DNA of 64,000 nt from an uncultured Actinomycetota bacterium. GTDB taxonomy: Bacteria; Actinomycetota; Actinomycetes; Actinomycetales; Microbacteriaceae. The stretch spans positions 7,334 through 71,333 of the forward strand of contig CAWBJK010000004.1 of the NCBI GenBank assembly GCA_963789095.1. The letters are read 5' to 3'. The first letter of the stretch is position 1; every line of letters begins with the position of its first letter. Made by a program: the position numbers and the translations under genes. The notes beneath the pieces were generated by a model. That model saw nothing but the letters and a program-made list of their open reading frames with translations. It ran no database searches and had not been told where the DNA came from. Shown piece by piece: positions 49,503-56,155 of the stretch.

Positions 49503-50321
49503 ATGGCTGGAGCACGCGGATCCCACGGCGGGAAAGGCCAGAGCGGGAAAGGCCAGAGCGGGAAAGGCCAGAGCGGGAAGCGTCCGGGAGGCAAACGCCC
49601 GAACCCCGCGTCCGGCCGCCTCGCGGCGAAGCCGACGCGGGCCGTCCGGCCGTCCCGCCCGGCGCCGGCGTTCGACGAGCGCGCGCCGGAGCCTCCCGCC
49701 GGGCCCTTCCGCCTGGGAGCTGTGCCCGGCACCACGCCGGGCAAGTGGATCGACACGTGGCACGCGCGACTGCCGCAGACGGCGCTCGAACTGGTCGCGC
49801 TGCCCGTTTCGGCGCAGCGTGACGCGGTCCTGGGCGATGCCGCGTCGGGCGGCGCGGTGCGGGGCCGCACCGTCGACGCAGCTCTCGTGCGCCTCCCCCT
49901 CGATCGCGGCGGGCTCCACGTCATCCCCCTGTACGACGAAGTGCCGGTGGTCGTCTGCGCCGTCGACTCGCATCTGACCGCCGCCGACGAGCTGACCGCC
50001 GACGATCTGGCGGGAGAGGTCGTGATCGTCCCCCGCGACGCCGTGATCGAGGCTGACGTGCCGGGGGCGGTCACGCCCGCCTTCGCCGCGCCGGAGACGA
50101 CGGAAGAGGCCGTCGCGACGGTCGCCGCCGGCGTGGGCGTCGTGATCGTGCCGATGTCGCTCGCTCGCCTCCATCACCGCAAAGACGTCGCCCACCGGCC
50201 CCTCGCGGATGGACCGACATCGACCGTCGCCCTCGCGTGGCCCACCGAAGACCATTCGCCTCTCGTCGACACGTTCGTCGGGATCGTCCGCGGCCGCACG
50301 GCAAACTCGTCACGCGACTGA
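49503..50321 (+). CDS. LysR substrate-binding-domain protein lacking the HTH, with a basic Gly/Lys-rich repeat N-terminus
   Basis: The C-terminal ~200 aa resemble a LysR effector domain (FRLGAVPGTTPGKWIDTW...VGVVIVPMSLARL). The N-terminal ~70 aa are low-complexity (GKGQS x3, Pro/Arg-rich) with no wHTH. Confidence 0.55.
   Translation: MAGARGSHGGKGQSGKGQSGKGQSGKRPGGKRPNPASGRLAAKPTRAVRPSRPAPAFDERAPEPPAGPFRLGAVPGTTPGKWIDTWHARLPQTALELVALPVSAQRDAVLGDAASGGAVRGRTVDAALVRLPLDRGGLHVIPLYDEVPVVVCAVDSHLTAADELTADDLAGEVVIVPRDAVIEADVPGAVTPAFAAPETTEEAVATVAAGVGVVIVPMSLARLHHRKDVAHRPLADGPTSTVALAWPTEDHSPLVDTFVGIVRGRTANSSRD
49531..49575 (+). repeat. Perfect 3 x 15-bp in-frame tandem repeat encoding GKGQS
   Basis: ggaaaggccagagcg is repeated three times without mismatch. 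Confidence 0.9.
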
Positions 50322-50324
50322 GCG

Positions 50325-50337
50325 CCCCCCCCCCCCC
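50325..50337. repeat. C13 homopolymer tract
   Basis: Thirteen consecutive C residues begin 4 nt after the stop of the LysR-like gene. Confidence 0.95.
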
Positions 50338-50657
50338 GGCCGCACGGCGTCGCACCGATCGCGAGCCGCCGCCACCGGTCGGGAGCCGCTGCGCGGGCAC
50401 GAAGACGGGCCGGCGGTGCCCCCCGACCCCGCCGGCCCGAAGTCCGGACGTACCCCCCAGCTCGTTCCGGACTTCGCGAACGACCTGGCATGAATTCTCC
50501 CCATAGGGACGACGAGTGCATCCCCATGCGGTCGTCGGTGGTCGTTCATGGATCAAGAGCAGACCTCAGGGGGCGTGATACACCTGCGGTGAGATTTCTC
50601 TCAGGATTTCGCTGAGACCTCCGCAGCCGCATCCCCGGCCGGGGGCGTCAGCGGCCG

Positions 50658-53171
50658 TCAGAATCCGGCGCCGTGACACTGGAACGGAGCCACGATGCCC
50701 GTGTCGCGCTGAGCCGCCGCCAGGGCCTCCGCCGGCGCGCGGCCCGCCGCCAGCTCGGCGTGGACGGCGCCGAGCAGAACGCACGCGTCGTCGTCGGCGA
50801 CCATGACGGGCGCCGCGATCACGCAGCCGACGCCCGCGTGCAGCCAGGCCCGCGTCATCCCGACCGCCTCCTCGCCCCACCGCACGGACGAACGTCCCAC
50901 CTCGCACGCCGACAGGATGACGACGCCGGGAACGGGGGCGATGTGGTCGATGTCGTGCCCGAACAACACGCCGTCGGACAACTCGAGACCGGAGAACAGC
51001 GGGTTGTCGCCCGAATGGCGACCGTGCGCCGCGACGTGGAGCAGATCGACCTCGGCGGCAAGTCCGGAGACCGCGGCGACGGTCGCCTCACCGGCGATCA
51101 GCCGACGCGATCCGGGCCACGCGGAGGCGGCCGTCTCGATCTCCTCGGCTCCGCGTGCGACGCGGGGACCGGCCGCGAATCCGACGGTCTGCGGAGGTGC
51201 GACGGTCGAGCGCACCCACCGCGACGCGGACGCTGCGAGGGTGACGGGTCGTCCGACGAGAGCCGGGAGCATGCTCCACGGGAGTCCTGCGAGGATCCCG
51301 GGCGACGTGATCACCAGACGCCGGGCACCCGACTGCTCCAGCGGGCGGTCCATGAGCGCCCGGGACAGGTCAGCAAGCCGGCGCACGAGCGAGGCGCGCA
51401 CGACGTCGGCCACCGGGCCGGTGCGCACGGTCGCGACCATGTCGAGGTCGGCGCGAAGGCCGGCGAGCGCGGCGCGAGCGTCGCCCCATTCGGGCAGGTC
51501 GACGACGCTCGCGCCGTTCGCGGTCACGACGACGCAAGACAGCCCGGCGGACCCGAAGACGTACGAGAGCACGGCCGTCTCGTCGTCGAGGCGGGCCTGC
51601 ACCGATGCGAGCGACGCGTGCTCCTCGACATGATCGGCTTTGGTCGCGGCCCACTGCCTCTGCCGCACGCGGTCGCCGAGGGCGATCGCACGAGGATCGG
51701 TGAGCCAGTCGGCCTCCGACAGGTCGGCGCGCAGCATGCGGAGCTCGGCGAGGTCGGCGGCGAGCGCGGGATCCGGCGGGGGTCTGAGCGGCAGCACCTG
51801 CTGGCTCAGCTGGCGGGCGCGCTCCGACCACTCGAACACGTGCTCGGGGCGGCCGGAGCGCACGGCGGCATCGATGCCGACGAGCATCAGACCGAGCCCG
51901 TGCATGACCAGCGAGGTCTGCAGATCGAGGCTGCCGTAGCCCGAGCGCCATGACGTGAGCTCGGCCAGTCCGTCGGCGGCCCGCCGGCGGGCCTCGGCGT
52001 CGCGGCCGGCGACGAACGCGCGCAGGGCACGGGCCTCGTGGGCGAGGAGCTTCACTTCGAGCGACGTCGAGGTCGACAGGCGCGGAATGCGTCCCGCCGG
52101 ACGTCCCGTTCGGGCGCGCCACACCTCGCGCGTCAGCCTCAGCGCCGCCGCCTCGTTCTCGAATCCCGAGCGGGCGAGTTCCCGCGCCACCCGGTCGACG
52201 TCGGCGTCGCGGACGGGGCGGCGGGAGCCGGCGACGAACCGCACCGACTGCACGATGAGACCGCCGGCCAGTCGGGCCCGCAGCCCGATGCCCTCGGCGC
52301 GTGCCGCCCACGACGCTGCGCCGAGGCTCGTGAACCGCCGTGCAGCGGTGCGCGCCATGTCTTCCGCGCGATCGGGGTCGTGCCGCAGCAGCGAGGCGGC
52401 GAGGTTGAGCTCCGCCTGACCGCGGGCCTGCGGCATCCCGTCGGCCCCGAAGGCCTCGGCTGCCGTCGCGAGGAGCCGTTCCGCATCCGTGACGAGACCG
52501 GCATCGCGCAGCACTTCTGCGCGGTCGGAGTCGCTGATGGCGGCGTTGACCGGCGACAGGGCGGCGAGCGTCGGGCGGGCGAGTGCCATCTCGCGCATCG
52601 CCTGCACGAGGTCGCCGCCGATGAGCGCGGCGTAGCCCAGATTGTGGCGGGCCTCGGCGACATCGATCTCAGACCCGCGTTCCTCGAAAACGGCGAGCGC
52701 CGCCTCGAGGTCGGCGCGGCTGGCGGCGAGATCGCGGCGCTGCATGTGCACGACGCTGCGGTTGAGGCGGAGGTTGGCGACGGCGAGCGGGTCGTCGGGG
52801 ATCGTGTCGATCGCGAGTCCCAACCAGCGGAGCCCCTCGTCGAGCTTGCCCTGGTGCACGAGCACGCTTCCGAGCTGCCCCGCGAGCACTCCGCGCGTGT
52901 GCGGGCTGAGGTGATCGTCGGCGAGCACGGCACGACAGGCGCGTTCGCCTTCCTCTGCAGCTCCCGTCTGTGTGAGGGCGTACGCGCGGGTGCCGACGAT
53001 GCGGGCCGCGAGGTCGGCGTCGGTCGCGAGGACGACGGCATCGGCGAGCACAGCGGCCGCTTCGACATAGCGCCGCTCGCTGCTCAGCTCGCGTCCGCGC
53101 GCGTAGAGCTCATCGGCCGTGTGAACCACTCGACCAAGCATGCCGTGATCGCCCGCGCCGCGCGAGATCAT
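50658..53171 (-). CDS. TPR-repeat CHAT-domain (caspase-like) protease, no signal peptide
   Basis: About 550 aa of TPR-like helical repeats are followed by a C-terminal CHAT core with the His/Cys dyad (LLHVAAHGRH ... VVILSACEVG). ATG 53171 lies 26 nt after the S8 stop. Confidence 0.8.
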   Translation of the reverse strand: MISRGAGDHGMLGRVVHTADELYARGRELSSERRYVEAAAVLADAVVLATDADLAARIVGTRAYALTQTGAAEEGERACRAVLADDHLSPHTRGVLAGQLGSVLVHQGKLDEGLRWLGLAIDTIPDDPLAVANLRLNRSVVHMQRRDLAASRADLEAALAVFEERGSEIDVAEARHNLGYAALIGGDLVQAMREMALARPTLAALSPVNAAISDSDRAEVLRDAGLVTDAERLLATAAEAFGADGMPQARGQAELNLAASLLRHDPDRAEDMARTAARRFTSLGAASWAARAEGIGLRARLAGGLIVQSVRFVAGSRRPVRDADVDRVARELARSGFENEAAALRLTREVWRARTGRPAGRIPRLSTSTSLEVKLLAHEARALRAFVAGRDAEARRRAADGLAELTSWRSGYGSLDLQTSLVMHGLGLMLVGIDAAVRSGRPEHVFEWSERARQLSQQVLPLRPPPDPALAADLAELRMLRADLSEADWLTDPRAIALGDRVRQRQWAATKADHVEEHASLASVQARLDDETAVLSYVFGSAGLSCVVVTANGASVVDLPEWGDARAALAGLRADLDMVATVRTGPVADVVRASLVRRLADLSRALMDRPLEQSGARRLVITSPGILAGLPWSMLPALVGRPVTLAASASRWVRSTVAPPQTVGFAAGPRVARGAEEIETAASAWPGSRRLIAGEATVAAVSGLAAEVDLLHVAAHGRHSGDNPLFSGLELSDGVLFGHDIDHIAPVPGVVILSACEVGRSSVRWGEEAVGMTRAWLHAGVGCVIAAPVMVADDDACVLLGAVHAELAAGRAPAEALAAAQRDTGIVAPFQCHGAGF

Positions 53172-53197
53172 GCACGCGGCGCCGGACGCGCGGCGAA

Positions 53198-54871
53198 TCA
53201 GCCGCCGCTGTCGACCACGCCCTTCACCGCGGCGACCGTCGCCGTCACCGACTCGTCGGACGACTCCGGGGCCCCGGGCAGCGCCGTGAGCGCCGCCGCG
53301 ACGCGGCCCGCCACGAGCGGCGCCGCGAACGACGTGCCGCTCCACACGGCGAAGCCGCCGCGGAAGTCTTCGGGCCCGATCGTGAGCCGCTGGCGCTCGT
53401 ACTGGTCGTCGCGGGCCGACGCCTGCAGACCTCCGTAGAAGTCGGGGAGCGTGCTCACGATCGACGCCCCCGGGGCGTACGTGCGCACCCACGGGCCGAC
53501 GTTCGAGAACAGCGCCGTGGTACGCCGGTCGGGGTTGAGCGCACCCACCGAGATGAGCGGCGCGCCCCCGTCCGGGATGATGCCGTTGTCGCTGCCCGGC
53601 CAGTCCCACAGCGACGCCGGGAACGTGGGGCGATCGATCGCATCGTTGCCGGCCGAGACGATCACCGCCGTACCGAGCCCGCGGAGCACCGCGAGGAGGT
53701 CGTACAGGTCGCGGGAGTAGAAGCCGTCCTGCGGGGTCTCGTGGTAGTAGCCGAGCGACAGGTTGAGCACGTCGATCGGGCGTCCCCCCTTCTTGCCGTG
53801 ACGGTGGCGGTACACGAGGACGCCGAGGTCTTCGATCACCTCCAGCAGGGCCGACTCCTCCACCATCCCGAGCGCGTCGGCCACGCGCACAGCCAGGATG
53901 TCGGCGTCGGGCGCCGCCTGCCGCACGATGCCCGCGATGAAGGTGCCGTGCCCGGCGACATCGTCGAGCTGGCCGTCGAGCGGCCCGTACAGGTCCGGGT
54001 AGATCTCAGGGTTCGCCTCATCGTCGAGGCCCACGGGCTGGCCGTCGAGCGTGACGTGCCGGTCGACGATGTCGTCGGGCAGCCAGTCATGGGCGCCCGC
54101 CCCTGTGTCGAGCACGGCGACGACGGCGCGGCGGCACCCCTTGGGCGTGTCGGCGCGAGACGGCGCGGCACCCACCCAGGCGACCGGCTGACGCCCGCCG
54201 GAGCCATGGTCCGCGTACTCGCCCACGGGGTTGGTCTTCGTGAACGGGTTCGTCTTCGTGAACGGGTTCGTCTTCGTGAACGGGTTCGTCTTCGTGAACG
54301 GGTTCGTCTTCGTGTACGGATTGACCCCGATCGGGTCGACCGTGAGCACATGGTCGAGAGCGACGCGGTCGGCGCCCGTCGCACGCAGGGTCGCCCCGAC
54401 GTCCACGGTGCCGTCGTCGCGCAGCACGGCGCCGCGCGCAAGCGCCTCACGACGCACCTGCTGCAGCACGCGCCACGCGTCGGGGAGCGCGGGAGAGATG
54501 CCCCGCGCGCTCTCGTCGGGGGTCGTCAGCCGCACCCGCAGCACGCGGGGCGCACCGGGCAGACGTTCCGTGCGCTCCTGCCGCTGCAGGGCCTCCGCCG
54601 TGCGCCCCTCCGGCACGACGCCCCAGCCGAACGACTCCGCCGCCGACCGCACGAGCCGGTACGGACCCTTGTCGACCTCGAGGTCGTCGTCGCCGCCGAG
54701 GCTCACCAGCAGCCGGTGCGGGACGTAGGCGGTCTGGAACGCCTCGACCCCGTCGAGCGGCTCGGTGCCGGGGTCGAGCACGACCGCCGAGATCACCGAT
54801 CCGCGCGCGCGATCACGCCACGACCACCCCCGCGGGTGCGGAGAACCAGAACCGCGTCCCTCATCGACCAT
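53198..54871 (-). CDS. Subtilisin-like S8 serine peptidase, cytoplasmic (no signal peptide), with a ~190-aa N-terminal region and a hexapeptide repeat linker
   Basis: Catalytic motifs are in order: D (AVVAVLDTGAG), H (AGHGTFIAGIV), N (VSAGND) and S (SGTSFAAPLVAG). GAGAGGA RBS precedes ATG 54871. Confidence 0.85.
   Translation of the reverse strand: MVDEGRGSGSPHPRGWSWRDRARGSVISAVVLDPGTEPLDGVEAFQTAYVPHRLLVSLGGDDDLEVDKGPYRLVRSAAESFGWGVVPEGRTAEALQRQERTERLPGAPRVLRVRLTTPDESARGISPALPDAWRVLQQVRREALARGAVLRDDGTVDVGATLRATGADRVALDHVLTVDPIGVNPYTKTNPFTKTNPFTKTNPFTKTNPFTKTNPVGEYADHGSGGRQPVAWVGAAPSRADTPKGCRRAVVAVLDTGAGAHDWLPDDIVDRHVTLDGQPVGLDDEANPEIYPDLYGPLDGQLDDVAGHGTFIAGIVRQAAPDADILAVRVADALGMVEESALLEVIEDLGVLVYRHRHGKKGGRPIDVLNLSLGYYHETPQDGFYSRDLYDLLAVLRGLGTAVIVSAGNDAIDRPTFPASLWDWPGSDNGIIPDGGAPLISVGALNPDRRTTALFSNVGPWVRTYAPGASIVSTLPDFYGGLQASARDDQYERQRLTIGPEDFRGGFAVWSGTSFAAPLVAGRVAAALTALPGAPESSDESVTATVAAVKGVVDSGG
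54229..54318 (-). repeat. 5 x 18-bp tandem repeat encoding NPYTKT-(NPFTKT)4 within the S8 peptidase gene
   Basis: The units are ggttggtcttcgtgaacg, then ggttcgtcttcgtgaacg x3 (identical), then ggttcgtcttcgtgtacg. Confidence 0.95.
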
Positions 54872-54955
54872 CGATCATCCTCTCGTTGTGGCCGCACGCG
54901 CGGCAGGTTCGGCGACGCCGACCGGCGTCCGTCCTCGACGGCATATGCGGGCGGA

Positions 54956-55417
54956 TCACACCTCGAAGCGGGGGGTGCGCAGCTCGCCCGGCACGGTCTC
55001 GTCGTCGGCGGCTACGACCACGCGCAGCCGGGTGATGCCGCTCGGCACGTCTTCGAAGGCGAAGCGCCCCTGCTCCGCCGTCGTCGTCCAGGATCTGTCG
55101 CTCTGTTCCAGTTCGATCGACGTCGAGGCCGCATCGACCCACCCGTCGATCCGGCGCAGCCCCTCACCTGACGGCACCACGTGCACGAGCACGCTCGTCG
55201 TGCCGTCGCTGAACTGCATCGTGAGCGCGTCGGCATCGCCGCGCACGGGCGCGAACTCCGACTGCGACACGAGCGTCAGCAACGCGTACTCGCGCGACAG
55301 GTCGGCACTCGCGACGGCCGCGACCATGCGGTCGACCAGATCGGTGGGAAGCGGGTCGATCCGCTCCCAGATCCGGCGCAGCGCCCGGAACATCTCGGCG
55401 TCGGTGTCAGCGGCCAT
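54956..55417 (-). CDS. Small soluble protein, candidate sigma partner/anti-sigma, with a beta-sandwich (carboxypeptidase-regulatory-like) C-terminus
   Basis: AGGAG RBS lies 6 nt before ATG 55417, and the gene overlaps the sigma gene 3' end by 11 nt. The N-terminus is helical (MFRALRRIWERIDPLPTDLVDRM). The C-terminus GRFAFEDVPSGITRLRVV resembles CarboxypepD_reg-type folds. No TM helix and no HxxxCxxC motif. Confidence 0.6.
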   Translation of the reverse strand: MAADTDAEMFRALRRIWERIDPLPTDLVDRMVAAVASADLSREYALLTLVSQSEFAPVRGDADALTMQFSDGTTSVLVHVVPSGEGLRRIDGWVDAASTSIELEQSDRSWTTTAEQGRFAFEDVPSGITRLRVVVAADDETVPGELRTPRFEV

Positions 55418-56057
55418 CGGCGTCTCCTGTCCATCCATCAGCGGCGAGCTTCACCCGCAGCTTGCCCAGGCATCGTTGCCGGGTGGGGCCGATCGAACCG
55501 ATCGGCATCGCAAGGTCCTCCGCGATGCGCGCGTAGTCCGGGCGATCCTCGAACGCGACGATCCGCAGGAGGCGCCGGCAGCGCTCCTCGAGCGTCTGCA
55601 CCGCCCGCCACAGGCGCGATTCGATGTCGGCGCGTTCGGCGCGCGACTCCGCCGACGCCTCGGTGGGCAGCCGCGGCTCGAGTTCGGTGTCCTCCACGGC
55701 ACGCACGCGCTGGTGCGACTTCGCCGTGCGCCAAGCCTCACGTCGCGCGCACGTCGTGAGCCACCCGGCGACCGCCCGGTCGTCGGCGATCGTGTCGTGA
55801 CGGCGCACGAGGGTCATCCAGGTCGTCTGGACGACGTCCTCGGCCAGCGACCGCTCGAGCCCGTATGCGCGCACCACATGCCACAGGACGGGCGTCATCG
55901 CGCGCACCAGGTCGTCCATCGCGCGGGCATCGCCTTCGCGCCAGCGGGTGAATGCCTCCGCCGCGCGATCCCAGATCGTGGGCACGCCCGACGACCCCCC
56001 GTCGTCGTCGGGTTCATCCCGCAGGAACGACGGGTCGGTAGCAGTCATACCGCCCAT
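55407..56057 (-). CDS. ECF-type sigma-70 family RNA polymerase sigma factor
   Basis: Region 2 (LAEDVVQTTWMTLVRRHDTI...AWLTTCARREAWR) and region 4 HTH (YARIAEDLAMPIGSIGPTRQRCLGKLR) are present. The start is 56057 or 56048. Confidence 0.85.
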   Translation of the reverse strand: MGGMTATDPSFLRDEPDDDGGSSGVPTIWDRAAEAFTRWREGDARAMDDLVRAMTPVLWHVVRAYGLERSLAEDVVQTTWMTLVRRHDTIADDRAVAGWLTTCARREAWRTAKSHQRVRAVEDTELEPRLPTEASAESRAERADIESRLWRAVQTLEERCRRLLRIVAFEDRPDYARIAEDLAMPIGSIGPTRQRCLGKLRVKLAADGWTGDADGR

Positions 56058-56155
56058 TGTGGCCACAACCTGAGGAGGGGGCCAGAGCCCGCGTGATACG
56101 TCACGCACGGCCACTCGTCCTGGCCCCGATCCGCGCCGCCGCCTAGACTCGGCGC

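Follow-up and report, generated by a model that had tools for sequence, protein, structure and literature searches.

How is a sigma factor of the extracytoplasmic function (ECF) type switched on when no recognizable anti-sigma factor is encoded beside it? This is what is at stake for ECF54, one of the few ECF groups without a known regulator. A 2022 review gives the conserved context of the group as carboxypeptidase(-regulatory), subtilase and CHAT proteins, with no anti-sigma factor, and mentions a proposal of proteolytic control, with reference to Huang et al. 2015 and Casas-Pastor et al. 2021 (PMC8999054). The latter authors counted ECF54 among 16 groups lacking a canonical regulator, with no member studied, and noted a 4Fe-4S protein near ECF54. 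Here we analyzed a 64-kb stretch of DNA (64,000 nucleotides, G+C content about 72%; referred to below as the window, in whose coordinates all positions are given) from contig CAWBJK010000004.1 of an uncultured Microbacteriaceae bacterium. It carries an operon of four genes, whose products are an ECF sigma factor, a small partner protein, a subtilase of peptidase family S8 and a protease in which tetratricopeptide repeats (TPR) are combined with a CHAT domain. Our main finding is that this operon matches the ECF54 context, travels as a cassette through Actinomycetota behind a conserved promoter-like box and keeps two protease active sites that appear intact; we tentatively propose that the two proteases would release the sigma factor from its partner.

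Four open reading frames (ORFs) of the same direction lie on the minus strand between 50658 and 56114 (Table 1). The stop codon of the sigma gene (55409-55407) and the start of the partner gene (ATG 55417) make an 11-nt overlap, with AGGAG 7 nt 5' of that ATG; an 84-nt gap containing GAGAGGA precedes the ATG of the S8 gene (54871), and 26 nt separate the S8 stop (53198) from the ATG of the TPR-CHAT gene (53171). This layout, with its overlap, gaps and ribosome-binding sites, had been described in an earlier sequence-only reading of the same DNA and was borne out. As for the sigma gene, which that reading had placed at 55407-56057, the stop stands and the start is probably another: several orthologues carry ATT at the position of ATG 56057 and keep GTG 56066, so that the GTG is the likelier start. 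Kyte-Doolittle scans of all four proteins found no N-terminal signal-like or transmembrane segment, the hydrophobic maxima being internal core strands. By hydropathy, the claim that both proteases lack signal peptides and transmembrane helices holds, and a cytoplasmic location is predicted for all four.

The sigma protein matches Sigma70_r2 of Pfam (E = 8.4e-9) and, over residues 65-223 of the longest ORF, the sigma70-ECF model TIGR02937 (67.8 bits, the cut-off being 42.9). With sigma-2 and sigma-4 regions only, it belongs by sequence to the ECF (group 4) branch of the sigma-70 family; an N-terminal extension of about 45 aa with an acidic stretch precedes region 2. An apparent sigma-partner fusion (P0167, 339 aa) proved to be a frameshifted read-through and not a natural fusion. 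The profile searches that the sequence-only reading had proposed also matched Peptidase_S8 and CHAT, TPR_12 weakly, and, for the partner, nothing in Pfam at E ≤ 0.01. Subtilase and CHAT neighbors are thus clear, the partner gives a weak CarboxypepD_reg match below the Pfam cut-off, no canonical anti-sigma factor lies beside the sigma gene, and the loci that we found elsewhere (at least 119) are all actinobacterial. Because this composition matches the ECF54 context, we regard the operon as a further member of a known, uncharacterized kind, and the novelty of composition implied by the sequence-only reading falls away: the gene set was already described (PMC8999054). That reading had allowed for an ECF group whose description would explain these neighbors as a characterized pathway; the description exists, the characterized pathway does not. 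In the ECF54 literature we found no mention of the box, its second copy, the non-coding unit, the S8 repeats or the partner arginine presented below, Huang et al. 2015 being outside this comparison.

To follow the cassette across genomes we used the partner, its most module-specific component, as a marker, and scanned one genome per species with a degenerate DNA pattern of three partner motifs. The pattern recovered four of six known copies, and a stretch from Gemmatimonadetes was rejected as a false match (1 false among the 120 stretches listed). The true loci, at least 119, are all from Actinomycetota: at least 57 in Microbacterium and other Microbacteriaceae, at least 22 in Nocardioides, Aeromicrobium, Marmoricola and Nocardioidaceae, at least 7 in Micropruina and Propioniciclava (Propionibacteriaceae), at least 2 in Dermatophilaceae and Branchiibius, at least 3 in Nitriliruptorales, at least 1 in Frankiales, and at least 27 in other Actinomycetota genomes. 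Gene content was determined by tblastn of the four window proteins against these loci and against five loci fetched earlier (L001-L005). The complete set was present in at least 77 loci, 70 of which have the order sigma-partner-S8-CHAT; a few are permuted to S8-sigma-partner-CHAT or sigma-partner-CHAT-S8, and nearly all loci with an absent gene are truncated by the 8-kb sequence block. Neighborhood conservation across Actinobacteria, which the sequence-only reading had recommended examining, is therefore extensive, with flanks that vary by genus.

Among the loci found, sigma orthologues show 44-82% identity. The closest partner relatives belong to Microbacterium, with identity up to 94% (73% to Microbacterium sp. 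LjRoot45). Five divergent members of the partner family have the same cassette and unrelated flanks; they include Aeromicrobium, Micropruina and, in addition, an assembly labelled Micromonospora sp. that has the Microbacterium-type flanks of the window. One Microbacterium clade keeps these flanks, with the GATase gene upstream in 23 loci and the LysR gene downstream in 11, and protein identities across the cassette loci track taxonomy (tblastn). Since flanks match within the clade and identities follow taxonomy, the module is better seen as a vertically inherited chromosomal unit than as a mobile island.

A bipartite box, GTATCA (56099-56094)-N16-CTCCT (56077-56073), ends 6 nt before GTG 56066. 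Upstream of sigma, about 100 loci share (A/G)TGTATCA, then (G)CTCCT 16 nt further on, and then a GTG after another 6-9 nt; the exact GTATCA lies 5' of sigma in 96 of 104 loci, among the matches listed. A count of GTATCA-N15-17-CTCC over 1.01 Mb of loci gave 104 occurrences, compared to 2 in reversed-sequence controls; the spacer measures 16 nt in 83 occurrences and 17 nt in 21. At loci of the L005 type, where S8 is the first gene, the box stands 5' of S8 instead of sigma. The box thus goes with whichever gene of the cassette comes first. We infer that it is the -35/-10 pair of the sigma factor itself, in which case the operon would autoregulate, and, given the short distance to GTG 56066, the transcript is probably leaderless. 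The promoter AGGAC-N16-CGTA put forward in the sequence-only reading is present in the sequence, but it was mis-registered: AGGAC is not conserved, and CGTA belongs to the GTATCA box.

In the scheme that we propose, the partner is the candidate for the missing regulator. It matches CarboxypepD_reg weakly (E = 0.012), and 20 of 42 family members match the same profile, all under the Pfam cut-off; on account of these weak matches, the C-terminal half fits the 'carboxypeptidase' neighbor of ECF54. An exhaustive profile search gathered 819 clusters at 50% identity (E ≤ 1e-3), nearly all of them 150-170 aa long. In the AlphaFold2 model (mean predicted local distance difference test score, pLDDT, of 84.9), an N-terminal two-helix hairpin (helices 2-20 and 27-54) is followed by a disordered linker with R59 (about 47-60; pLDDT below 50 at 47-49 and 51-60), by an Ig-like, CarboxypepD_reg-like sandwich of eight beta-strands (pLDDT above 90), and by a C-terminal T-P-x-F-E-[IVL] motif. 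R59 is invariant in 115/115 homologues, within L-[AG]-[AG]-[VT]-R-[GS]. The C-terminal motif is conserved up to the final residues, with T148 and F151 likewise present in 115/115, which suggests that the free C-terminus is recognized; the TPR domain could do so, or the tail could be a degron. A fold search returned generic Ig-like matches only, and a profile search of PDB sequences found no relative.

Sigma and partner genes overlap by 1-4 nt in L001-L005, as they do by 11 nt in the window, and from this arrangement the partner is read as translationally coupled to sigma. Coupling by gene overlap is the usual layout of sigma/anti-sigma pairs. Because of this coupling and of the helical N-terminus, we read the partner as anti-sigma-like: it would be a soluble inhibitor that holds sigma through its two-helix N-terminus.

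The subtilase matches Peptidase_S8 over aa 249-542 (Pfam, E = 3.4e-21). H308, N409 and S514 align with H64, N155 and S221 of subtilisin BPN', D255 lies within the Pfam profile match, and each of these four residues is kept in 82-85 of 85 homologues from other genomes. The Asp-His-Ser triad is thus in the order that defines family S8, and the oxyanion Asn is present; the intact catalytic motifs claimed in the sequence-only reading are confirmed by alignment and conservation alike. Upstream of the catalytic domain come, in order, an N-terminal alpha/beta domain (about aa 30-178), a disordered repeat linker and the segment GGR227QP. In the AlphaFold2 model the N-terminal domain has a pLDDT above 90, compared to about 50 for the linker, and R227, itself in a disordered segment, is kept in 77 of 85 homologues. 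The general plan recalls subtilisin pro-enzymes, with an N-terminal alpha/beta domain, aromatic P1-type junction sites and weak ferredoxin-like fold matches. It differs from them in the size of the domain (about 150 aa), in the lack of a secretion signal and in the lack of a significant I9 or PDB match (best PDB hit E = 0.38, the weak top match being ferredoxin-like). A type VII secretion mycosin was also considered and rejected: TIGR03921 scores 60.8 bits against a cut-off of 278.75, and the protein has no signal or transmembrane segment.

The linker carries (NPFTKT)x5, which is absent from the sequence-only reading; its coding DNA is the strongest tandem repeat of the window according to Tandem Repeats Finder (TRF). 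An exact tandem peptide repeat occupies the same linker position in 92 of 93 homologues, in 2-7.3 copies; its period is 6 aa in 84 of them, 5 aa in 7 others and 8 aa in the remaining one, and the array ends 29-58 aa N-terminal of the catalytic Asp. Units vary by species (NPFTG, NPLTRG, NPYHDS, HPFDVG, HPWDIP, SPYHTP and others) around a kept core, [NHDS]-P-[FYLHWMV]; copies are identical within one protein, and 2-3 positions of the unit are constrained. The core of the repeat places Pro at P2 and an aromatic side chain at P1, as does the classical subtilisin substrate suc-AAPF-pNA, and S8 might be released through these AAPF-like tandem x-P-Phe sites. We know of no characterized subtilase with a junction of 2-7 identical tandem sites.

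The same array lends itself to another explanation, namely that S8 is a self-processing precursor whose hexapeptides are released as a multi-copy peptide product or signal. Precursors with repeated cores that are cut by S8 proteases do exist: yeast alpha-factor with Kex2, and the cyanobactin precursor PatE with PatA/G. Identity of the copies within a protein, a species-specific unit, DNA copies 97% identical, a disordered linker and a core like that of suc-AAPF-pNA would all suit such a precursor. Against it, the cassette has neither exporter nor modifying enzyme, all its proteins are predicted to be cytoplasmic, and no more than 2-3 positions per unit are constrained; a flexible multi-site tether or docking motif fits equally well. 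We therefore hold the peptide precursor to be very improbable.

In the fourth protein, CHAT (PF12770) is matched at aa 599-823 (E = 1.2e-23), together with the weak TPR_12 match. H716 and C756 are invariant in 41/41 homologues; a His followed by a Cys is the dyad of caspase-like clan CD enzymes, here assigned by motif and conservation, and the His/Cys dyad claimed in the sequence-only reading stands. No sequence-level relative was found in the PDB, the solved Csx29 included. Misassigned catalytic residues had been a concern of that reading; alignment and conservation agree in S8, and motif and conservation in CHAT, and judging from them both active sites are under purifying selection with their catalytic residues intact.

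What might two such proteases do beside an ECF sigma factor? The closest precedent, which the sequence-only reading had omitted, is type III-E CRISPR, where the TPR-CHAT protease Csx29, together with Cas7-11, cleaves Csx30, an inhibitor of the ECF-type CASP-sigma; cleavage relieves the inhibition of sigma, and sigma motifs lie within the locus (PMC10028731). The present cassette resembles this Craspase system in that a cytoplasmic TPR-CHAT protein is encoded beside an ECF sigma factor and a non-canonical partner, with sigma motifs in the locus. It differs in that the window has no Cas7-11, crRNA or CRISPR array, in that the partner, at 153 aa, is not Csx30-sized, and in the addition of S8. Membership in the Craspase systems was rejected, given 64 kb without an array, metabolic and repair neighbors, and no sequence match to the solved Csx29. 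A second precedent is DdvA of the Myxococcus xanthus DdvA-DdvS pair, a transmembrane anti-sigma factor with a periplasmic TPR-CHAT part, for which autoproteolysis has been proposed as the trigger (PMC11506125). There too TPR-CHAT is tied to ECF sigma control, but DdvA unites it with a zinc-binding anti-sigma domain in one membrane protein and depends on RseP, whereas here the TPR-CHAT protein is separate and soluble, with a His/Cys dyad invariant in its 41 homologues; having neither a transmembrane segment nor an anti-sigma domain, it was rejected as a DdvA-type anti-sigma factor.

The logic of two proteases acting in turn is known from membrane-spanning cascades. In those of RseA (DegS, RseP and ClpXP) and RsiW, a sensing protease cuts first, a second one finishes, and the ECF sigma factor is released. 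The proposed module would share this logic and differ in its means: the cascades span the membrane and rely on S1, M50 and AAA+ proteases, whereas here an S8 and a clan CD enzyme would act entirely in the cytoplasm.

We propose, with these parallels to Csx29/Csx30/CASP-sigma and to DegS/RseP/ClpXP acting on RseA in mind, the following scheme. TPR-CHAT would be the signal-sensing protease and would cut the partner after the invariant R59 in its disordered linker; it may also cut the S8 zymogen at GGR227-Q. S8, once freed from its N-terminal domain, would complete the degradation of the partner, and sigma would be released. We put the protease-gated release of sigma, as a whole chain, a little short of an even chance. 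The broader claim of the sequence-only reading, a sigma-coupled intracellular proteolytic module, is supported by tight packing, by joint travel across orders with changing flanks and by conserved active sites.

It is conceivable that the proteases degrade sigma itself and so hold it at a low level, the small protein being an adaptor or a protector. This is what the literature proposes for groups without an anti-sigma factor, ECF54 being named, by analogy with AntA and ClpXP (PMC8999054); the acidic N-terminal extension of sigma could serve such degradation, and a single operon for sigma and proteases would provide negative feedback. Coupling of the partner to sigma and the invariance of its linker Arg would be left unexplained, however, the loci without sigma described below still keep the other three genes, and both characterized cases that pair TPR-CHAT with a sigma factor act through an inhibitor (PMC10028731, PMC11506125). 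Degradation of sigma is in our opinion improbable.

Several points weigh against the gated release of sigma. Cleavage by CHAT after Arg is assumed from other clan CD enzymes, and Craspases cut elsewhere. Binding by the partner and proteolysis among these proteins are derived from the analysis of sequences and predicted structures. Neither Pfam, queried with the partner and its relatives, nor a profile search matched the partner N-terminus to an anti-sigma family. The operon matches an ECF54-type module, as its Microbacterium member, by genomic context and not through ECF Hub models, and no 4Fe-4S (Fer4-type) neighbor was seen in the window surroundings or in L001-L005; in this it differs from the ECF54 context of Casas-Pastor et al. 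2021, where that neighbor is a reported association and not a strict criterion. The window operon is otherwise like ECF54 in being actinobacterial, in having a sigma without recognizable anti-sigma and CarboxypepD_reg-like, subtilase and CHAT neighbors, and in the proteolytic control that has been proposed. Lastly, the parts are separable, because a few loci lack one of them. Genuinely sigma-less loci were found in three related metagenome-assembled genomes (L014, L058, L103) and at L021, with partner, S8 and CHAT kept, so that these three may have a role of their own. L102 has sigma-partner-CHAT without S8 in its 8-kb block, followed by a C1 protease and I42 inhibitor pair, and S8 therefore appears dispensable or replaceable.

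At the sigma-less loci a divergent FemAB-like gene occupies the place of sigma. L014, L058 and L103 retain the sigma-type box 5' of the partner gene, and L021 has no box; the sigma factor of these genomes may be encoded elsewhere, or lost. On the Nitriliruptorales contig JAGXFT010000027.1, L021 adjoins L074, giving S8-partner-CHAT (no sigma) and then S8-CHAT-sigma-partner, and these side-by-side modules suggest duplication and rearrangement in that lineage.

The boxes at L014, L058 and L103, which stand 5' of partner-S8-CHAT, also bear on a different view of the operon, in which partner, S8 and TPR-CHAT are the output of sigma, an inducible cytoplasmic proteolysis for stress, development, death or defense, and sigma is controlled otherwise. 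All four genes lie behind the sigma-type box, the same box precedes Peptidase_C1 and chagasin I42 genes in other genera, and CHAT and S8 proteases are known to activate effectors in other conflict systems. The surroundings of the operon count against this view. On one flank are a divergent GATase-like gene, xylulokinase, xylose isomerase and a LacI-type regulator, and on the other a LysR regulator, DUF1304, a YitT-family protein, Nei glycosylase and Lhr helicase, that is, ordinary chromosomal housekeeping genes of metabolism and repair. No CRISPR-like repeat array was found in the 64-kb window, no gasdermin-like ORF or Pfam or PADLOC match to one in the operon or its flanks, and no substrate-like toxin or NTPase gene in the Pfam annotation of the same region; the absence of CRISPR array, gasdermin and NTPase claimed in the sequence-only reading is upheld by these scans. 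PADLOC 2.0 gave no system-level match, its best generic ones being a subtilase model (4.5e-6), IetS (1.5e-4) and BovA (0.009). We accordingly rejected both a catalogued anti-phage system, PADLOC 2.0 returning generic matches only, and a gasdermin/protease system, no gasdermin gene adjoining a protease. Housekeeping flanks, a position conserved in the Microbacterium clade and identities that follow taxonomy are, moreover, unlike mobile defense islands, and autoregulated ECF operons normally carry their own regulators. Proteolysis as the output of sigma thus strikes us as a serious view, and on balance a somewhat unlikely one; the defense or cell-death option of the sequence-only reading, in particular, is not favored, with no PADLOC match above noise, with such flanks and with such a stable position.

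Whichever way sigma is controlled, its regulon may extend beyond the cassette. A second box, GTATCA (50581-50576)-N16-CTCTT (50559-50555), lies 77 nt past the CHAT stop. Of 51 loci that extend far enough, 29 have, among the matches listed, a GTATCA at most about 300 nt 3' of the CHAT stop, and in Microbacterium it is usually no more than 30 nt from that stop. The window box is followed by a candidate non-coding transcript of about 150 nt that carries UGGGG(A) motifs and, at its end, a GC-rich hairpin (50438-50407), and many Microbacterium loci have equivalent units 3' of CHAT. No conserved ORF was seen in this unit, the frame differing between the window and L076. Over 24 sequences UGGGG is counted 51 times, where shuffles give 14.3 +/- 3.2 and the opposite strand gives 1, and the terminator hairpin covaries, 9 of its 10 pairs being compensated. 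In one subclade internal hairpins are supported as well, one of them with UGGGG in the loop.

A single RNA structure across Microbacterium is not supported: MAFFT and RNAalifold applied to all 24 units recovered the terminator alone, a long-range closing helix was no better than shuffled controls, and a covariance model built on a single subclade matched that subclade only and missed the window copy. Rfam (4227 covariance models) was matched neither at E ≤ 1 within 50100-50800 nor at gathering score anywhere in the window. On this evidence the unit is a candidate sigma-dependent small RNA.

In loci of the Nocardioides type, the second box precedes a Peptidase_C1 gene (E about 1e-37), and at L102 (6118-8000) a Peptidase_C1 gene and then a chagasin-family I42 inhibitor gene follow it. 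With second boxes in front of such genes, the putative regulon would be protease-centered. At L004 (12842-13156), L040 and L123 the second box precedes a short ORF, that of L004 being without a Pfam match. L104 (6831-7998) is another Nocardioides-type locus with a second box and a downstream unit. At L005 (3617-4881), an extra GTATCA-N17-CTCC box lies 74 nt 5' of a gene for a 396-aa protein without a Pfam match, which begins MTVTEDLG and contains YYCGAASAQMVL; an ORF of 131 aa follows, and both may be further members of the regulon.

Taken to its fullest extent, gated release would amount to a CRISPR-independent, cytoplasmic Craspase-like switch: CHAT would cut a new kind of anti-sigma factor, built of two helices and an Ig fold, at Arg, and would activate an S8 zymogen with an evolving array for self-cleavage or docking, and the freed sigma would transcribe its leaderless operon together with an as yet undescribed UGGGG-rich small RNA, or elsewhere a papain/chagasin pair. 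That all of these features hold together is unlikely. If gated release of sigma itself holds, TPR-CHAT would control ECF sigma factors not only in CRISPR (Craspase) and at the membrane (DdvA) but also in a widespread, housekeeping-type circuit of soil Actinomycetota, and a compact protease-to-transcription switch for engineering could follow; a sigma-dependent non-coding unit would bring an RNA arm into the regulon. The locus offers several handles on these questions, namely the promoter box, a candidate anti-sigma factor with an invariant linker Arg, two proteases with apparently intact active sites, the S8 repeat array and the second sigma-type unit.

Table 1. Features of the cassette and of its immediate surroundings in the window.
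Feature	Position	Strand	Remarks
Bipartite promoter-like box	56073-56099	-	GTATCA-N16-CTCCT
ECF sigma gene	55407-56066	-	GTG 56066 preferred start, ATG 56057 alternative
Partner gene	54956-55417	-	153 aa
S8 subtilase gene	53198-54871	-	557 aa
18-bp x 5.1 tandem DNA repeat	54228-54319	-	encodes (NPFTKT)n in the S8 linker; TRF score 170, 97% identity
TPR-CHAT protease gene	50658-53171	-	837 aa
Second box	50555-50581	-	GTATCA-N16-CTCTT
Candidate non-coding transcript	50400-50548 (ends approximate)	-	about 150 nt

Two features of low complexity were noted on the LysR side of the cassette. Just beyond the stop of the LysR-type gene, and before the terminator of the candidate RNA is reached, the minus strand has 13 consecutive G (C13 on the plus strand; 50325-50337), perhaps a tract prone to slippage, perhaps an artefact of assembly. 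The LysR-type ORF (49503-50321, plus strand) has at its 5' end a perfect tandem repeat of 15 bp x 3.5 (GCGGGAAAGGCCAGA; 49528-49579).

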